Below are positions 14,706 to 44,300 of a stretch of DNA of 64,000 bases, piece after piece. Every line of letters begins with the position of its first letter. Position 1 is the first letter of the stretch. The translations under genes and the position numbers were made by a program. The stretch is from Alphaproteobacteria bacterium (GTDB lineage: Bacteria > Pseudomonadota > Alphaproteobacteria > CALKHQ01): NCBI GenBank assembly GCA_965227515.1, contig CBDDFZ010000001.1, forward strand, positions 768,001-832,000, read 5' to 3'. Under the pieces are notes generated by a model. It was given only the letters and a program-made list of their open reading frames with translations. It was not told the origin of the DNA and searched no databases.

Positions 14706-15131
14706 TTAATGAGCAAGACTCATTAGTTTGATGAATCCCGCTTCAAGATCCACGCCTAGCGCATCTTGATAGTTTTGCTGGGCCTGATCAACAAATCGCG
14801 CGCCTGGCGTCTTGATGTCGCGCCACAAACCACCTAGGTCCGAGGGGAAATATTCCAAGGTAATGCCTGCGATAAACGCAGTGTAGTATGCAGAAAAGTA
14901 GTCACCGCGCTCAATGTGTCCGGCTATCTGATCAACCATCATTTCCTCAAATACTGCCCTGGTTTCCCGGATGATATCTCTCGGAGGGAGTATATTTGGA
15001 TCAGCAAAATTGTCGTCAATGATCGACTTGCCATCATTGATTGCGAGCGGTTCGTCAGCGTGGACATTCTCGACTGAAAGGCAGGCGGTGAATAATACAA
15101 CAACCACACTCATAGAATGCAAAATTCTCAT
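14706..15131 (-). CDS. Hypothetical exported protein (low-GC islet)
   Basis: ORF with signal peptide, coupled to upstream ORF (ATGA overlap), GGAG RBS. Confidence 0.6.
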   Translation of the reverse strand: MRILHSMSVVVVLFTACLSVENVHADEPLAINDGKSIIDDNFADPNILPPRDIIRETRAVFEEMMVDQIAGHIERGDYFSAYYTAFIAGITLEYFPSDLGGLWRDIKTPGARFVDQAQQNYQDALGVDLEAGFIKLMSLAH

Positions 15132-15508
15132 GACTGATCTCCTGTCGTCGCTATATATGCAGTGTGGTGTGTTTCAATTAGTTCCCGTGCCTTCTCAAGC
15201 AAGTGAGCCCGCAACGCCGGCCTTACCCCTGCCCGCAATGAAGACCAACCGCCATTCCTTTTTACTTGCGTCTCAACCATAGCTAAGTACGCAGTAATCG
15301 CTGCGCCACAGCTCTGGAAAGCGCTATCGATGGCTGAATCTATATGTTGCCCGTCCGCTACATGATGTGCGGCCCCAAACTCTGCACAGACAATAAAATC
15401 TCGAAAGCGACTTTCTAGAGAATTTGTGCCTGAGGTGCTCGATCCACTGGAGGCAACGCAGCCCGCTAGAAAGACGACCAAAGCTAGTATGCCAATTCTG
15501 TGATGCAT
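15128..15508 (-). CDS. Hypothetical lipoprotein (low-GC islet)
   Basis: Lipobox LAGC followed by a Ser-rich linker; GAGG RBS. Confidence 0.6.
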   Translation of the reverse strand: MHHRIGILALVVFLAGCVASSGSSTSGTNSLESRFRDFIVCAEFGAAHHVADGQHIDSAIDSAFQSCGAAITAYLAMVETQVKRNGGWSSLRAGVRPALRAHLLEKARELIETHHTAYIATTGDQS

Positions 15509-15734
15509 AAATCTGCCTCGTTCACCTCTGCTTCGATACAATTTTTTTCTATCACGCCGTCTGGTTGGTGGCAATTATTCCAATTGGGGGTTTATGGAAA
15601 TGTTAGTCACAACAGCAAGCGTAGATGGGCTAACGGCCCTCGTTTGGTGGCTTGCATGAGTGGTCGTCCCTCAAGATGTCGGTGTCATACACGGAGTCGG
15701 GTTTGCCGCTCCAAGACATCGAGGAGAGACGACC

Positions 15735-16778
15735 ATGAACTACTATGCCGGGATTGACGTTTCTTTGGAATGGTCATCGGTGTGCGTTGTTGACGGCGCG
15801 GGCGGGATTGTCTGCGAGGCTCGTATTGCGAGCACGCCGGCGGGTTTGTTGTTGTGGTTTGGGTCTTTGGGGATTTCGGTTGAGCGGATTGGTCTTGAGG
15901 CGGGGCCGTTGTCGCAATGGCTTGTGCGGGAGTGCGCGCAGGGCGGTCTTTCGGTTGAGTTGCTGGAGACGCGTCATGTTGCGCGGGCCCTTTCGACGAT
16001 GCCGGTGAAGTCGGACCGCTCGGACGCACGCGGGATTGCTCAGCTGATGCGTGTGGGCTGGTTTCGTCCGGTTCACTGCAAGTCTTTGGCGGCCCAGGAG
16101 ATGCGGGCCCTTTTGAAGGGTCGCGACCAGCTCCGCGCGAAGCTGCACGATCTTGAGATGCACCTTCGTGGTCAGCTGCGGAACTTCGGGCTGAAGGTAG
16201 GGCACACCACCAGGCGCAGCTTTTCGACACGTATTTCGGAGCTTGTGGCGGGGCATCCGGTACTGGAGGCGGTGGCGGGGGCGCTGCTGTCGGCACGCGA
16301 TGGCCTGTTGCTATCGTTCACGGCGCTGGACCGGCAGGTCCGAGCGGCATCGCAGGCGGACGATCGCGCTCGCCTGCTGATGACGGTGCCGGGCGTGGGG
16401 AGCATTGTCGGACTGACCTACTTGTCGGGAGTGGACGACCCCGGGCGGTTTGCCTCGTCGCGCCTGGTGGGGGCGCACTTCGGCCTGACGCCGACCAAGC
16501 GCCAGTCGGGCGAGAGCGAGATGACGGGGCGGATCTCGAAGGTGGGCGATGCGGACGTGCGTGCAGCGCTTTACGAGGCGGCGCACGTAATCCTGACCCG
16601 GCCGATCAAGGGCGGGTGGTTGAAGAGCTGGGCGATGAAGCTGGCCAGGCGAGCCGGCATGAGGAAGGCGAAGGTCGCGCTGGCGCGCCGGCTGGCCGTG
16701 ATCATGCACCGGATGTGGGTTGACGGCACCGCGTTCAACCATGCCGGACCGGTGCGCCCGGCGATGGCAGCGGCCTAA
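15735..16778 (+). CDS. IS110-family DEDD recombinase/transposase
   Basis: GIDVS, GLEAG, KSDRSDA (DEDD); VPGVG; QSGES catalytic Ser; ALARRLA. Confidence 0.96.
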   Translation: MNYYAGIDVSLEWSSVCVVDGAGGIVCEARIASTPAGLLLWFGSLGISVERIGLEAGPLSQWLVRECAQGGLSVELLETRHVARALSTMPVKSDRSDARGIAQLMRVGWFRPVHCKSLAAQEMRALLKGRDQLRAKLHDLEMHLRGQLRNFGLKVGHTTRRSFSTRISELVAGHPVLEAVAGALLSARDGLLLSFTALDRQVRAASQADDRARLLMTVPGVGSIVGLTYLSGVDDPGRFASSRLVGAHFGLTPTKRQSGESEMTGRISKVGDADVRAALYEAAHVILTRPIKGGWLKSWAMKLARRAGMRKAKVALARRLAVIMHRMWVDGTAFNHAGPVRPAMAAA

Positions 16779-16849
16779 TGGCAAAGACGACCGCCGCATA
16801 GGGAGAACCAGCACACGAGCTTCGGCGGGCGCAGACACCGGCCCGTCAA

Positions 16850-17015
16850 GCGCCGTCCCGCGCCGGGACGATGGATCAGGTCAGGCCGCCATCCAGGATG
16901 TCGCCTCGCACGAGAGCACGCTTCCGTAGATTGGACCGACCGATCCTCGCATATCCATCTTGGTGGCGGCCGTGCGCCGACCCCGTACAGAAGCATGACC
17001 CAGGCGCCGGGACGA
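16850..17015 (+). ncRNA. Predicted bridge RNA / seekRNA of IS copy 1 (boundaries approximate)
   Basis: 5' hairpin 16854-16870; target-matching 16889-16897 and 16924-16929; donor-matching 16955-16961 and 16986-16993, each pair flanking an inner hairpin. Confidence 0.75.
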
Positions 17016-17053
17016 CGAAAAAGGGATTGACCAACAATGGCCCGTTACAGAAG

Positions 17054-17106
17054 CCTGGGTGAAACGAAGCGGAACCCGGGTTTCACTGCGTTCCACCCGG
17101 GTTACG
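17054..17106. repeat. GTAG-type REP dyad interrupted by IS copy 1
   Basis: Rejoined site cgtagcctgggtgaaacgaagcggaacccggg...ccacccgggttacg matches 59171-59258. Confidence 0.88.
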
Positions 17107-17118
17107 AGAGCTTGCCGC

Positions 17119-17973
17119 CTACAACGACCGCAAATACGCAATCAACGCCGCCATGTCCTCGTCGGTCATGTTGGCGTAGGCGTAGGTGCCCATCGGCGGC
17201 AGCAGCTGCGAGCCGTCGGGCCGCACGCCGGTGGTGATGATCTGGACCAGCTCCTCGTCTGAATAGCGCTCCAGGGCCGCTCCGGTGATCGGCGGCGAGA
17301 CGCTGACGCCCCACGGGCCGTGGAACGGGAAGCCGCCCTGGTTCAGCGCGTTCTCCAGGTCGGGCGCGCCCATTGGGCCGGGCGACGAGTGGCACTCGGT
17401 GCAGTGGCCGAGCGGGCCTGCCAGGTATTCGCCATACGCCAACTGATCGGCTGGGTCGACGTCGGCCACGCTGTCGATCGGCGGGCCGTAGGCGGGCGGC
17501 AGTGGCACGTGGTACTCGGACGGCTGCACCTCGTTCTCCACCGCCGGCACTTGCCTGAGATAGGCGATGATCGCGTCGACATCGTTGTCGGAAAGCCCGC
17601 GATAGACCTGGCACGGCATCGGCGGGCCGATGATGGCCCCGTCCGGCCGCAGGCACTCGCGGATGGCGCGCGCGATATCCTCGTCGCTCCAGGTCCCGAT
17701 GCCGGTTCCCTCGTCGGGCGTGATGTTCGGCGTGAAGACCATGAACACGCCGGGTTCCTCGATCGGCAGGCCGCCGGCCAGTTCCATGCCGGGGATCAGC
17801 CCGTCCTGGTTTTGCGGCGTGTGGCAGTTGCCGCAATTGACGATGGACTGCATCAGGTAGGTGCCGCGCTCCAGCGGCGTTTGCCCGGTCGCCACGGACG
17901 CGCCGGTCGCCAGGCACAAAAAAACGGCCGCGGCAGATGCGCCACGAACCGTCCACTTCCCACCGAACTGCAT
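17119..17973 (-). CDS. Di-heme cytochrome c (start uncertain)
   Basis: CGNCH and CTECH motifs; PNITPD..TGIG.WS; signal peptide. Confidence 0.9.
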   Translation of the reverse strand: MQFGGKWTVRGASAAAVFLCLATGASVATGQTPLERGTYLMQSIVNCGNCHTPQNQDGLIPGMELAGGLPIEEPGVFMVFTPNITPDEGTGIGTWSDEDIARAIRECLRPDGAIIGPPMPCQVYRGLSDNDVDAIIAYLRQVPAVENEVQPSEYHVPLPPAYGPPIDSVADVDPADQLAYGEYLAGPLGHCTECHSSPGPMGAPDLENALNQGGFPFHGPWGVSVSPPITGAALERYSDEELVQIITTGVRPDGSQLLPPMGTYAYANMTDEDMAALIAYLRSL

Positions 17974-38689: not shown

Positions 38690-39640
38690 ATGAGTGCCGA
38701 ACCGATCGCTGCAACCGCCATGGACAGTGACGAAGCACGGCAGCACCTGAACGCGCACGGCTATGTGGTGCTGGAGAACGCGATCGACCGTGCCGCGGCG
38801 CGCGAGCTGAAGGCGCTGGTCGACCGCCGCATGGCGATTGAGCGCGCGCAGCCGTTCGATCCGGGCGACGGCCCGTCCCACCCTGACGATGCTTTCTTCG
38901 CCGAGGAGGTCGGCCCTTTCACCGCCGGCAAGGCCGAGCGCGCGCGCGTCGTGCAGCGCATCCGGGCCGATCGCGCCCGCGAGTTCGACACGCCCTGGCC
39001 GGTGGAGCCGGAGCACGTCTGCATCAGCTTCTTCCACATCCCGACATTGTTCGACGACGGCCGCTCGCAGCGGGTGTTCAACCTGATCAACAAGGAGCCG
39101 GCGTTCGCGCCGCTGATCGAGCACCCGGCGGTCATGAACATCATTGACGCTGAACTGGGCCGCGACGCGGTGCTGCTGGACGTCAGCATCAACAATGTCG
39201 GCGCCCACACCGAGAGCGGCGGTTGGCACGTGGACTCCCCGCTCAGCATGGCGCCCGAGCCGCTGCCCGACTTCACCCTGTCGATCCAGACGGTATGGAT
39301 GCTGGACGACTTCACGGCCGAGAACGGCGCCACCCTGGTGGCGCGCGACAGCAATCTGACCCGCCGCCAGCCACCGCCGAACGCGGCGGACGTGGCCAAC
39401 CCGGTGGTGCTGGAGGGCCCGGCGGGCTCGGTCGCGATCTGGCTGTCGCAGACCTGGCACCAGCACGGCGGCAACAGGACCGACACCCCGCGCACCGGCG
39501 CCATCGTCCAGTACGGCCGGGCGTGGATCAAGCCGTTCGTCGACCTGCGCACGCCGATGACGGCGGACCAGGCGGCGCAGTTCTCGCCGCGCCTGCGCTA
39601 CATGATGGGCTGCAACGCCAACGCCCCGGTGCGGGGATAA
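38690..39640 (+). CDS. PhyH-family Fe(II)/2-oxoglutarate dioxygenase
   Basis: GYVVLENA; WHVD; WMLDDFT.ENGAT; WHQHGGN.T...R. Confidence 0.88.
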   Translation: MSAEPIAATAMDSDEARQHLNAHGYVVLENAIDRAAARELKALVDRRMAIERAQPFDPGDGPSHPDDAFFAEEVGPFTAGKAERARVVQRIRADRAREFDTPWPVEPEHVCISFFHIPTLFDDGRSQRVFNLINKEPAFAPLIEHPAVMNIIDAELGRDAVLLDVSINNVGAHTESGGWHVDSPLSMAPEPLPDFTLSIQTVWMLDDFTAENGATLVARDSNLTRRQPPPNAADVANPVVLEGPAGSVAIWLSQTWHQHGGNRTDTPRTGAIVQYGRAWIKPFVDLRTPMTADQAAQFSPRLRYMMGCNANAPVRG

Positions 39641-39690
39641 GCTCGAAGTTTTTTTGCGTCATGCCCGCACTTGTCGAGCCTACGTTCAGT

Positions 39691-39772
39691 CGTAGCCCGG
39701 GTGGAACGTAGTGAAACCCGGGGACATACCTTCACCTCTCTGTGCCCCGGATTGCGCTGCGCTCCATCCGGG
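39691..39772. repeat. GTAG-type REP dyad interrupted by IS copy 2
   Basis: cgtagcccgggtggaacgtagtgaaacccggg ... cccggattgcgctgcgctccatccggg[ct]; completed by acg at 41195-41197. Confidence 0.9.
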
Positions 39773-39810
39773 CTTCTGTAACGGGCCATTGTTGGTCAAT
39801 CCCTTTTTCG

Positions 39811-39976
39811 TCGTCCCGGCGCCTGGGTCATGCTTCTGTACGGGGTCGGCGCAGGGCCGCCGCCAAGATGGATATGCGAGGATCGGTCGGTCCAATCTAC
39901 GGAAGCGTGCTCTCATGCGAGGCGACATCCCGGATGGCGGCCTGACCTGATCCATCGTCCCGGCGCGGGACGGCGC
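39811..39976 (-). ncRNA. Predicted bridge RNA / seekRNA of IS copy 2 (boundaries approximate)
   Basis: Guide-like segments at 39929-39937, 39897-39902, 39865-39871, 39833-39840. Confidence 0.75.
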
Positions 39977-40038
39977 TCGACGGGCCGGTGTCGGTGCCCG
40001 TCGAAGCTCGTGTGTCGGTTCTCCTTATGCCGCGGCCA

Positions 40039-41082
40039 TCATGCTGTCGCCATCGCCGGGCGCACCGGTCCGGCATGGTTGAACGGTGTGCCGTCAACCC
40101 ACATCCGGTGCATGATCACGGCGAGCCGGCGCGCCAGCGCGACCTTCGCCTTCCTCATGCCCGCACGCCTGGCCAGCTTCATCGCCCAGCTCTTCAGCCA
40201 GCCGCCCTCGATCGGCCGGGTCAGAACCACGTGTGCCGCCTCATAGAGGGCCGAGCGCACATCGGCGTCCCCTACCTTCGATATCCGCCCCATCACCTCG
40301 CTCTCGCCCGACTGGCGCTTGGTCGGCGTCAGGCCGAAGTGCGCACCCACCAGGCGCGACGAGGCAAACCGCCCGGGGTCGTCCACTCCCGACAAGTAGG
40401 TCAGTCCGACAATGCTCCCCACGCCCGGCACCGTCATCAGCAGGCGAGCGCGATCGTCGGCCTGCGCCGCCGCCCGGACCTGCCGGTCCAGCGCCGTGAA
40501 CGATAGCAACAGGCCATCGCGTGCCGACAGCAGCGCCCCCGCCACCGCCTCCAGTACCGGATGCCCCGCCACAAGCTCCGAAATACGTGTCGAAAAGCTG
40601 CGCCTGGTGGTGTGCCCTACCTTCAGCCCGAAGTTCCGCAGCTGACCACGAAGGTGCATCTCAAGATCGTGCAGCTTCGCGCGGAGCTGGTCGCGACCCT
40701 TCAAAAGGGCCCGCATCTCCTGGGCCGCCAAAGACTTGCAGTGAACCGGACGAAACCAGCCCACACGCATCAGCTGAGCAATCCCGCGTGCGTCCGAGCG
40801 GTCCGACTTCACCGGCATCGTCGAAAGGGCCCGCGCAACATGACGCGTCTCCAGCAACTCAACCGAAAGACCGCCCTGCGCGCACTCCCGCACAAGCCAT
40901 TGCGACAACGGCCCCGCCTCAAGACCAATCCGCTCAACCGAAATCCCCAAAGACCCAAACCACAACAACAAACCCGCCGGCGTGCTCGCAATACGAGCCT
41001 CGCAGACAATCCCGCCCGCGCCGTCAACAACGCATACCGATGACCATTCCAAAGAAACGTCAATCCCGGCATAGTAGTTCAT
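40039..41082 (-). CDS. IS110-family DEDD recombinase/transposase
   Basis: Same DEDD and QSGES motifs as copy 1; a few C-terminal substitutions. Confidence 0.96.
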   Translation of the reverse strand: MNYYAGIDVSLEWSSVCVVDGAGGIVCEARIASTPAGLLLWFGSLGISVERIGLEAGPLSQWLVRECAQGGLSVELLETRHVARALSTMPVKSDRSDARGIAQLMRVGWFRPVHCKSLAAQEMRALLKGRDQLRAKLHDLEMHLRGQLRNFGLKVGHTTRRSFSTRISELVAGHPVLEAVAGALLSARDGLLLSFTALDRQVRAAAQADDRARLLMTVPGVGSIVGLTYLSGVDDPGRFASSRLVGAHFGLTPTKRQSGESEVMGRISKVGDADVRSALYEAAHVVLTRPIEGGWLKSWAMKLARRAGMRKAKVALARRLAVIMHRMWVDGTPFNHAGPVRPAMATA

Positions 41083-41243
41083 GGTCGTCTCTCCTCGATG
41101 TCTTGGAGCGGCAAACCCGACTCCGTGTATGACACCGACATCTTGAGGGACGACCACTCATGCACGCCACCAAACAAGGGCCGTTAGCCCATCTACGGGT
41201 TTTCTTGCCAATGGCATCTTGAGGTCGCGGCTGATTGCGCCGC

Positions 41244-41310
41244 GCCCCTCACCTTCCCAGCCTATGGCTGGGCCCCTTCCTCTCCCGCACCGCTTCGCGG
41301 CGGGGAGAGA
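41244..41310. repeat. CCCTC(A/T)CC-type hairpin repeat
   Basis: cccctcaccttcccagcc..ggctgggccccttcctctccc...gggagag; same pattern at 63909-63972. Confidence 0.6.
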
Positions 41311-41346
41311 TGATTTGGACGCGCTTCGCGATGACGATGTAGGCAC

Positions 41347-44300
41347 CTACCGCTGGTCGAGCTTGATCTCGATGCGGCGGTTCTGGCGCAGGGACTCGTC
41401 GTCCTCGCCCTCGCTGAGCGGCTGATATTCGCCGAAGCCGGCGGCGACCAGCCGGTTGGGCGGAATGCCGCGCGAGATCAGGTATTCCACCACCGAGATC
41501 GCGCGCGCCGACGACAGCTCCCAGTTCGACGGGAACTCGCGGGTGTTGATCGGCACCACGTCGGTGTGGCCGTCGACCCGCAGCACCCACTGGATGTCGT
41601 CGGGAATGGTATCGGCGATGCCGAGCAGTGTATCGGCGATCTGGTCCAGTTGCGCCCGGCCTTCCGGGCCGATTCGCGCGTCGCCCGAGGCGAACAGCAC
41701 CTCCGACTGCAGCACGAAGCGATCGCCGACGATGCGGATGTCCTCGCGGTTGCCGATGGCCTCGCGCAGGCGGCCGAAGAACTCGGACCGGTAGCTCGCC
41801 AGCTCCTCCACCCGGTCGATCAGCGCGGTGTTGAGCCGGTTCGACAGGTTGACGATTTCCACGTCCTGCTCGGCGATATGAAGTTCGGCCCGGTCCAGTG
41901 CACCGGTCAACCGTTCCAGTTCGGCGCGCAGCGCCATCAGTTCCTCGTTAAGGGCGCTGATCCGCTCCGCCGCCTCCTCATAGCGGGTTTCGGCCACCAC
42001 CAGGTCGGCTTCCAGGCTGCGGTTCTCGTCCCGCGTGGCCGTCAGGTCGCGATAGAGCTGGCCGGTGTCGGCGCTGGCGTCGGCCAGATCGCTGGCCATG
42101 GCGGCAAGGTCGGCGGCGAGCCGCGCGCGTTCTTCCTCGCTCAGAGCAAGCGCGTCCTCGGCTTCCTGCAGCCCCGCCGACAGCTCGGTGATCTGGGTGC
42201 GCAAGGCATCGCGCAGCGCCGTCAGTTCGCCGATTTCGACCAGCCGCGCCTCAAGCGTGGCGTCGCGGGCCGACAGGTCGGCTTCCTGGGAGGCAATCTC
42301 GTCCTGCAGCTCCTCGGTGCGGGCCAGCAGCAGCGCGATCTCCGAATCCCGCTCCTCCATGTCGGCGAGCAACTGGTCGCGCAGGGCCAGCAAGGCGGCG
42401 ATCTCCGACTCCCGGCCGGCGAGGTCGCTGTTGAGTTGCGTGCGCAGGGCGACCAGGGCCGCCAGCTCGCCACGCACCGCGGCCAGCTCGCGCTCCCGCG
42501 CGGCCACGGCCTCGTTCAGTTCGGCGACATAGGCTTCAAGGTCCAGTACCTCGGCCTCGGCAGCACTCAGGTCTTGGCGCAGTTCGTCACGCTCGCCAAC
42601 TGCCGCCGCCAGCGCGGCGTCGCGCTCGGCCAGCGTCTGGGCCAGTTGCTCCTGCTCGCGGGTCAGTGCGTCCAGCGCCGCCTCGCGCTCGGCAAGCGCC
42701 TGGGCCAGCAGCTCGCGCTGTGCCTGGGCCTGGGCGGCCAGGGCAGTCTGCTCGTCGATGGAGTCGGCGAGCGCGGTCTCGGACTGCTCCAGTTCGCTGA
42801 TGGAGGCTTCCGCCAAGGCGGCCCGCGCCAACGCGGCATCGCGCTCGGCCAGCGCCGTTGCCAGGTCGTCGCGCACCTGGGCCAGTTCGGCCAACTCGGC
42901 GACCTGTGCCGCCATGTCGTCCTCGAGTGCGGCGCGCGCCAGTTCCAGTTCGGCGATCGCGGCATCGCGTGCGTCCAGGGTCTGGCTCAAGAGGTCGTAC
43001 TGGTCGGCGGCCAGCGCCAGCGCCGCGTCGCGTTCCGCCAGCGCATCGGCCAGCGCCTCGCGCGCGGCCTCCAGCGATGCCAGGTCGCCCTCTGTCTCCG
43101 CCAAGGTGCCGGCAAGCTCATCGCGCTCGGCGGTCAACGACGACAAGGCGGCATCGCGCTCCGCGACGGCGGCCGCCAGTTCGGCGCTGCGCTGCTGGGC
43201 CAGCGCCAGGGCGGCGTTACGCTGCGCCAGCGTCTCCGCCAGCGCATCGCGGGACTGCGCGGCCTGGGCCAGTGCTGCCTCGGTTTCCGCCAGTGCCGCG
43301 GTCTGGGTGTCCAGGCGCTCGGTCAACGCATCGGCCTGGCCGGAGGCGGCGTCCATCTCGGCTTCCAGGCCGCTGATCGTTTCGGTCTGGTTCGCCATCG
43401 CGGTCTCGAGCGCCTCGGCCATCGCCCCGACCTCGTCCAGCGCCTCGTCGCGCGCCGCCAGGTCGGCGGCCAGGGTATCGGTGCGCGCTTCCAGTTCGGC
43501 GATCAGCGCGTCGCGCTCGGCCAGCACCTCGGCCAGTGCCGCGCTCCGTTGCTCGGCCGCCGCCAGCGCCGCGTCGCGCTCGGCCAGCAGCGCTTCCAGT
43601 TCGGTCTCGCGGGTGGCGAACGCGAGGATCTCGTCCTCGCGTTGCTCCAGCTCGGCGTTCAGCGCGTCGCGCAGCGCCATCAGCGCCACCACCTCCTTGC
43701 GCAGGTCGCCGATGACGCGACGGTCGCCGGCCAGCGACTGCTCCAGGTCGGTGGCCTCGGCCAGCAGACCCTCGATCTGCAACCCCTGTTCGTCGAGCGA
43801 GGCCTGCAGCCGGTCGCGCAGCGCGGTGAGGGTGACGATTTCCTCGCGCAGCTGATCGCGCTCGGCCTCGGTCTCCGCCAGCGAGCCGGTCAGGGTTTCG
43901 GCCTGGGCGGTCAGCGCCGCGATCTCCTCGTCGCGCCCCGCAAGTTCGGATTCCAGCTCGTCGCGGATGGCGTAGAGGACCGCGATCTCCTCGCGCATGT
44001 CGGCGACAGTCTCGTCGCGCGCGGCCAGGTCGGCGGCGGTCTCGTCGACCTGCAGCTCCAGTGCGAGAATGCGCTCCTGCTGCTCGCGGCTGAGCGCGGA
44101 AAGCTGCTCGTTCGAGGCCTGGGCATCGGCAAGCTGGCCCTCGAGCGCGCTGAGCTCCTGGCGCAACTGGTCGCGCAGGGCGGACAGCGCGGCGGTTTCC
44201 TGGCGCACATCGGCAAGCTGGTTGGTGCGCTCCAGAAGCTGGGTGTTGAGCTGCTCCGAGAGTTGGTTGAGATCGGCGATGGAGCCGTCGCGCGCGGCCA

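Follow-up and report, generated by a model that had tools for sequence, protein, structure and literature searches.

It has long been known that insertion sequences (IS) of the IS110 family target REP sequences, and such targeting was reportedly described by Tobes and Pareja in 2006 and by Choi et al. in 2003. The window analysed here, a stretch of 64,000 nucleotides of alphaproteobacterial DNA, holds two copies of one such IS (95% identity over alignment columns, flanks counted in) and raises the question of whether sibling elements in the same genome have retuned their RNA guides, by a single letter, to different REP sub-variants. This had been proposed in the initial annotation from the two window copies, with the reservation that chance could not be dismissed at n=2, and the letters were found to be as it had read them. 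In copy 2, positions 39929-39937 of the plus strand read cccggatgg (CCATCCGGG in the sense of the element) and match the flank at 39764-39772 (ccatccggg) in 9/9 positions. In copy 1, the guide CCATCCAGG at 16889-16897 matches tcacccagg (reverse complement of 17054-17062) in 7/9 positions, with one of the two mismatches being a possible rU:dG wobble and the other lying at the distal (terminal) position. The two copies differ at the guide position that mirrors the REP variant (alignment column 1347).

Judged by its sequence features, the element is an IS1111-type insertion sequence of the IS110 family, with a gene for a DEDD transposase (tnp) followed on the 3' side by a predicted seekRNA or bridge RNA. 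The transposase (347 aa in each window copy) matched PF01548 (DEDD transposase, RuvC-like, N-terminal; E=1.6e-12, residues 5-150), PF02371 (C-terminal transposase domain; E=1.1e-19) and the NCBIfam equivalog NF033542, 'IS110 family RNA-guided transposase' (236.5 bits, cut-off 140). Similarity to the solved transposase chains of IS621 and ISCro4 was found in the C-terminal domain (E about 1e-10), and a GLTP....SG motif is present, aligned with the ISCro4 transposase as fGLTPtkrqSGes. The non-coding region extends over 275 nt from the tnp stop (16778) to the right end (17053), and 110 nt lie upstream of tnp. A subterminal inverted repeat (arms 15631-15648 and 17030-17047, 18 nt, 72% complementary) is located 6-7 nt inside the ends. 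In the relevant part of PMC11187229, the IS1111 group is defined by the motif GL-P----S(t)G, by subterminal inverted repeats and by a long non-coding region that follows tnp. Rfam covariance models gave no match at E<=1 over window positions 15500-17200, and a plasmid collection searched with the IS gave no match.

The coordinates of the features are listed in Table 1. By analogy with the circle-junction promoters covered in PMC11187229, the outward-facing TTGACC may form half of such a promoter. Directly 5' of the tnp start, copy 1 carries a 12-nt inverted repeat with 92% complementarity (TGGTCGTCCCTC / GAGAGACGACCA; 15661-15672 with 15724-15735), which takes in the ribosome-binding region and the first base of the start codon (A, 15735). 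The same repeat is found in copy 2, the counterpart in relatives reads GGTCGTCCCTCA...GAGGGACGACC, and its role may be that of a translational lock on read-through transcripts. To the left of copy 1 (window 15000-15620), the DNA is markedly A+T-rich compared with the remaining window; copy 1 sits at the edge of this stretch, which possibly represents the border of a foreign island.

Table 1. Positions of features of the two IS copies in the window; the roles given to RNA segments are predicted.
Feature	Position	Strand	Basis
Copy 1 left junction: REP-derived CGT and dinucleotide core AG (15623-15624)	15620..15624	+	nCGTAG/ATGGG in 20/20 copies; CGTAGCC... in unoccupied REPs
Copy 1 of the IS, guide-A lineage, right core AG (17052-17053) included	15625..17053	+	Alignment of window copies; ends common to 20 copies
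Copy 1 transposase gene, 347 aa	15735..16778	+	PF01548, PF02371, NF033542; ORF intact in all 20 copies
Predicted P1 helix, 5' strand, pairs with 16999-17014	16854..16867	+	Duplex fold over 21 sequences
Predicted stem H2, 5' strand, closes target-binding loop	16873..16888	+	RNAalifold and pair counts: compensatory changes in 6 of 13 pairs
Copy 1 predicted target guide CCAUCCAGG, polymorphic A at 16895	16889..16897	+	Complementary to right-flank top strand
Second predicted target guide CCGUAG + AU	16924..16931	+	Same sense as left junction C-CGT-AG-AT; identical in 20/20 copies
Predicted stem H2, 3' strand	16932..16946	+	RNAalifold and pair counts
Predicted donor guide CCAUCU, complementary to core and left end AGATGG	16955..16960	+	Conserved as CCCAUC in relatives with left end AGATGGGG
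Predicted hairpin H4 between both donor guides	16962..16982	+	Compensatory changes in 3 of 5 pairs; all cells paired (100%)
Predicted donor guide ACAGAAG + C	16987..16994	+	Same sense as right end, core and first flank base; AGAAG invariant among relatives (alignment A2)
Predicted P1 helix, 3' strand	16999..17014	+	Duplex fold
Outward-facing -35-like TTGACC, 21 nt from right end	17027..17032	+	TTGAC almost unchanged across 21 relatives
Copy 1 right-flank target CCTGGGTGA, REP 5' arm	17054..17062	+	Letters read directly and 20-copy table
Copy 2 right-flank target, CCCGGATGG in element sense	39764..39772	-	Letters read directly and 20-copy table
Copy 2 of the IS, guide-G lineage, both cores included (39773-39774, 41193-41194)	39773..41194	-	Alignment of window copies
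Copy 2 second predicted target guide CCGUAGAU	39895..39902	-	Letters read directly and 20-copy table
Copy 2 predicted target guide CCAUCCGGG, polymorphic base at 39931	39929..39937	-	Letters read directly and 20-copy table
Copy 2 transposase gene, 347 aa	40039..41082	-	PF01548, PF02371

Every copy of the IS was collected from the genome (G000), which comprises two contigs of 4.07 and 1.45 Mb. This yielded 20 full-length copies at 20 different loci and one internally deleted copy. The reading frame is intact in all 20 (345-347 aa), and two of them have an in-frame 6-nt deletion (345 aa) in common. The junctions of every copy read ...GT-AG/ATGGGC on the left and ...ACAGA-AG/CC on the right, the AG dinucleotide was found at both junctions in 20/20 copies and likewise in the junctions read in relatives, and the orientation relative to the REP is identical throughout. 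Unoccupied REPs, of which the genome contains 114, follow the pattern CGTAGCC[C/T]GG[A/G]TGGAGCG...AACCCGGG. The joined left and right flanks of the 20 copies agree with the unoccupied consensus at 25/27 conserved positions, and the 14 nt further left are unconserved in occupied and unoccupied sets alike. Because the joined flanks restore the REP consensus, the element enters at the REP 5' edge, and the insertion point lies between CGT-AG and CC. AG comprises the only letters common to both junctions and was therefore taken to be a 2-nt core that, as in IS621, is CT when read on the opposite strand; a longer core was rejected, since the base that precedes AG differs between the two (left junction T, right end A). 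Since the left junction retains only CGTAG of the REP, the crossover falls at AG, and the polymorphic flank base, the third base beyond the core, is target DNA and not part of the element.

No orthologous empty site was found in the 30 relatives searched, and the pre-insertion base was thus deduced from paralogous REPs only. In the nearest three relatives (same family, other genus), the two flanks were located on different contigs, with no IS copy. Contigs of runs X1-X4 on window positions 38700-42300 break at the IS ends, and none joins across the element. Among public RNA runs, none was listed as containing the locus. In the X2, X3 and X4 contigs (window 39768-41196), the depth of the IS is several times that of the flanks (79.9 vs about 7 in X2), with about 3% differences, and the family is therefore multi-copy in related organisms too. 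Four insertions (window 39690-39760 and G000 C2:1238463, C1:2043175 and C1:1595896) have the same composite right flank, in which a REP is followed, after a spacer of about 20 nt (...gaggtgaaggtatgt...), by an inverted REP, so that REPs occur as repeated paired units, like BIMEs.

A single-sequence fold of the non-coding region was unconvincing (z=-1.78), with the guide paired to other segments, and a comparative structure built on an alignment of 21 non-coding regions was used instead. In the comparative model, the 9-nt guide, a variable hairpin (H3) and CCGUAGAU lie between the two strands of stem H2, hairpin H4 is placed between CCAUCU and ACAGAAGC, and the long helix P1 closes the whole RNA, so that the target guide is predicted to lie in an internal loop closed by a covarying stem. 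Cells were paired in 93.4% of cases, compared with 31-52% when the partners were slid, compensatory changes were found in 9/18 pairs, and the observed covariation score was reached by 0/500 shuffles. Over the 21 sequences, the P1 duplex energy had a mean of -24.1 kcal/mol for cognate and -17.9 kcal/mol for non-cognate strands. The right flank CC[T/C]GG[A/G]TGG, which is the REP 5' arm, is the complement of the 9-nt loop guide CCAUCC[A/G]GG. In 20/20 copies, CCAUCU fits the left end together with the core, and ACAGAAG fits the right end together with the core.

All genome copies were then tabulated by guide letter and flank letter, a comparison that the initial annotation had named as the test of its reading. 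Guide A faces a T at the third flank base in 7/7 copies, and guide G faces a C in 11/13 and a T in 2/13 copies (Fisher exact p=4.6e-4), with Watson-Crick pairing at this position in 18/20 copies. The association thus holds over 20 copies, and the reservation about n=2 falls away. The two exceptions, guide G at a T site, are rG:dT wobble-compatible, and the combination of guide A with a C site occurs 0 times. At target positions 1-8, every non-Watson-Crick position in the 20 copies is a possible rU:dG or rG:dT wobble, and pairing is 9/9 in 8/20 copies. In the two copies with guide G at a T site, pairing is poor (6 Watson-Crick positions, 2 wobbles and 1 mismatch), and these copies could be in-situ conversions of A-type copies. 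The A allele is found on two backbones only, comprising 6 similar copies (97.7-100% to copy 1) and one divergent copy. Independent guide mutations number 1-2, the allele being inherited, and each of the 20 insertions is a separate target choice. The deleted copy, which lies outside the window (G000 C1:998362-999184), was left out of the count because its guide is lost; its RNA tail is of the A type, and its flank carries a T. Its deletion, which removes the 3' half of tnp and the target guide, has its break at the short repeat TGGACCG, common to tnp and the 3' strand of H2.

Occupancy was then compared with the available sites, using a pool of 134 REPs, occupied and unoccupied, of which 45 are T-type and 89 C-type. 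The variant CCCGGGTG accounts for 62 sites, 2 of them occupied by guide G and 0 by guide A; CCTGGGTG for 41 sites (guide G at 2, guide A at 6); CCCGGATG for 27 sites (guide G at 9, guide A at 0); and CCTGGATG for 4 sites (guide G at 0, guide A at 1). Guide G is located at its perfectly pairing variant CCCGGATG in 9/13 copies, with a pool share of 27/134 (P=1.8e-4 for at least 9 of 13), and guide A occupies 0 of the 89 C-type sites (P=4.8e-4 for 7 of 7 at T sites, given the pool). Both lineages are biased towards the best-pairing REP variant relative to the pool of 134.

Relatives of the element were obtained by a scan of 185,579 species genomes, with one genome per species. Among the 75 related loci (best protein identity 68%), 46 carry a conserved anchor before the guide, and 36 of these also have a recognisable right end; the covariation set consisted of 28 distinct guide-flank pairs, the two window copies included. 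Guide and flank match in at least 7 of 8 positions in 23/28 cognate pairs, compared with 11/682 non-cognate pairs, and the segment equivalent to the second target guide (CCGUAG + AU) tracks the left flanks. From these comparisons, the 9-nt guide segment appears to behave as a programmable target guide across relatives, including those with unrelated target sequences. The misses are L015 and the nested L024 (3 of 8), L068 (5) and L036 and L077 (6). In L024 (2241-2660), the right end of an IS copy is directly followed by a second copy of the non-coding region, as in a tandem or nested partial duplication. One further misfit, missed by the pattern and read by eye, is L017 (= L087, genome G032), whose guide CATCATGCT does not fit its own flank AGCGGTTTA. 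The guide of its sibling L014 does match, and in L017/L087 either the guide was replaced after insertion or the copy was immobilised. Extensions of ACAGAAG into the flank, resembling a handshake, were read by eye over 1-3 nt in L014, L028 and L034, with none in L012, L025 and L029. The idea that the guide segment is a captured REP fragment was rejected, because in relatives with targets other than REPs this position of the RNA varies along with the target. Genome G031 contains two copies with guide CAATCCGCC, inserted at GGCGGATT and GGCAGATT, and one copy with guide CAACCCGCC, inserted at GGCGGGTT; it appears, from its sequences, to provide an independent replicate of single-letter retuning.

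The explanation that joins the observed anatomy, association, asymmetry and family-wide covariation, namely an IS1111-type element with a guide-RNA anatomy and a one-letter G-to-A split into two REP-variant lineages, is considered very probable. Briefly, the transposase would be guided by a seekRNA or bridge RNA encoded in the non-coding region of ~275 nt downstream of tnp. On the 5' side of the target loop, the 9-nt guide would pair with the top strand just right of the insertion point, while CCGUAG on the 3' side of the same loop would match the left side and the core; a second pair of segments, CCAUCU and ACAGAAG, would match the joined IS ends. A single G-to-A change in the guide would have split the family into two lineages. 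The G guide, able to pair with C and to wobble with T, would sit mainly at CCCGGATG REPs, and the A guide, pairing with T alone, would sit only at CCTGG REPs. Presumably the RNA is made and used, and both lineages are probably active at present. G is likely to be the ancestral guide letter, as the relatives L016, L018 and L019 carry G.

The same association could arise if the REP preference were set by the transposase variant, another non-coding difference or timing, with the A/G letter hitch-hiking as a passenger of its lineage. Such an account draws on the full linkage of the guide letter to a 9-nt indel at the tnp stop and to a C/T difference at 16911, on the 1-2 independent origins of the A allele and on ISPpu10, for which part of a preprint (10.64898/2026.03.19.712850) reports that a target stem-loop adds specificity beyond pairing. 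It is countered by the structure of the copies themselves, which in the element alignment of all 20 form mosaics with at least three blocks drawn from two sequence types; this suggests that the IS copies often recombine or undergo gene conversion with one another. Copy 926323 combines a B-type tnp 3' half with an A-type non-coding region and is located at a T site; copy 1655171 combines an A-type mid-tnp with a B-type (guide-G) non-coding region and is located at a C site. The mosaic copies thus uncouple transposase variants from target choice, which follows the non-coding region. In copy 694771, the most divergent (93.6% to copy 1), guide A is joined to a 3' RNA tail of the G type, and the flank CCTGGATGG is the only 9/9 A-type flank. 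As to the linked differences, hairpin H3 has, by reading of the sequence, the C/T in its apical loop, and the indel is not part of the folded RNA. The guide letter is never uncoupled from either of them, and the causal letter was therefore assigned by mechanism and wobble asymmetry, not by recombinants. The mirrored position is exactly that predicted by antiparallel pairing, the exceptions are wobble-compatible only, and the same RNA position covaries with the flanks in relatives with unrelated targets. A passenger role of the guide letter is therefore judged unlikely.

Matching could also have been acquired after insertion, if flank bases were carried along with the element or if gene conversion between IS copies or between REPs changed the flank or the guide. 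Recombination among the copies is extensive, the two copies with guide G at a T site could have arisen from A-type copies by conversion, and excision is reported, in the part of PMC11187229 that deals with it, to require a donor flank matching the seekRNA, which implies an interplay of flank and guide after insertion. These points are set against the position of the crossover at AG, which makes the third base beyond it target DNA, against flanks that differ at many further positions of the REP sub-families beyond the paired base, and against the three different flank variants found among the G-guide copies, so that matching after insertion seems very unlikely. An accidental resemblance between a 9-mer of the element and its neighbourhood, finally, would be favoured by the small number of alleles and by a palindromic, abundant repeat whose derived 9-mers are common in the genome (392 AG+CCNGGNTG sites). 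This is hardly credible given the Fisher test (p=4.6e-4), the pool probabilities (4.8e-4 and 1.8e-4), the contrast between cognate and non-cognate pairs across the family and the independent replicate in G031.

The preferred reading, that sibling elements have retuned their guides to different REP sub-variants, is thus supported as it had been proposed for the two window copies, and G031 shows the same kind of one-letter retuning. A wider version of it holds that the G-to-A change turned a generalist guide into a T-only specialist and opened about 45 CCTGG sites, that the sibling lineages partition the REP sub-variants of one chromosome, and that recombination moves guides between backbones. 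We give this version a little better than an even chance.

Several features of the element have counterparts in known systems. As in the IS1111-group seekRNA elements ISEc11, ISPa11 and ISKpn4, in so far as they are described in PMC11187229, a transposase of ~340 aa with the group motif is combined with a downstream non-coding region and subterminal repeats. In IS1111 seekRNAs, the match to the top strand precedes, on the 5' side, the match to the bottom strand (Siddiquee et al. 2024, PMC11187229, in the part on target matches), and both the two target matches in this order and a natural re-direction between relatives are found here as well. The 'natural re-direction' covered in the same source concerns ISEc11 and ISXne4 and is a replacement of the whole guide between transposases that are 72% identical and belong to different hosts (PMC11187229), whereas the copies studied here differ by one letter, are about 95.5% identical in DNA and represent 20 insertions in one genome. 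With IS621, as portrayed in sections of PMC11208160 and PMC11208158, the element has in common the target and donor loops, a long and a short guide in each, a 2-nt core, REP targets and guide-target covariation. For IS621 bridge RNA, the legend of Extended Data Fig. 5a links distinct natural guides (16 guides) to distinct target motifs (Durrant et al. 2024, PMC11208160). By analogy, the 9-nt guide may correspond, on the other strand, to the 8-9-nt 5'-side guide of IS621 in the structural account of PMC11208158, and CCGUAG + AU may correspond to its 3'-side guide, core and handshake bases (Hiraizumi et al. 2024, PMC11208158, same account). Unlike in IS621, the RNA is encoded at the right end, after tnp, and matched no Rfam family. 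The donor guides are placed in a multi-branch loop closed by P1, as remarked for many IS1111 members in a passage of PMC11208160. ISPpu9 and ISPpu10 of Pseudomonas putida are likewise multi-copy, REP-targeting IS110 members according to the portion of PMC12288879 devoted to them; they differ in belonging to the IS110 group with a 5' bridge RNA, and that portion describes no within-genome guide alleles. Experiments on ISPpu10, in an excerpt of the 2026 preprint 10.64898/2026.03.19.712850, show that a G.T wobble at one guide position supports insertion and that other mismatches do not.

RNA-guided targeting, programmability and the need for a match between donor flank and RNA are already in print, in the corresponding parts of PMC11187229. 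A one-letter guide split between sibling copies in one genome with matching REP sub-variants was not found in the main-text literature consulted. Since the mechanism and 'natural reprogramming' were published in 2024, the present case is a new example at a fine scale and not a new kind, and it leaves the known mechanism unchanged. It provides a compact, well-defined RNA anatomy of the IS1111 type, made up of four guides and the elements P1, H2, H3 and H4. It also indicates that wobbles are tolerated in vivo and A.C mismatches are not, and suggests that retargeting can occur by point mutation without loss of mobility. If the reading is true, the occupancy figures would show, in a natural setting, what rU:dG and rG:dT wobbles at defined guide positions of an IS1111 RNA cost in vivo, and niche splitting by guide mutation would be seen in a natural and countable form. 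With one letter, two lineages, 20 datable insertions and 134 candidate sites in one genome, the family offers a natural experiment on specificity change in RNA-guided recombinases.
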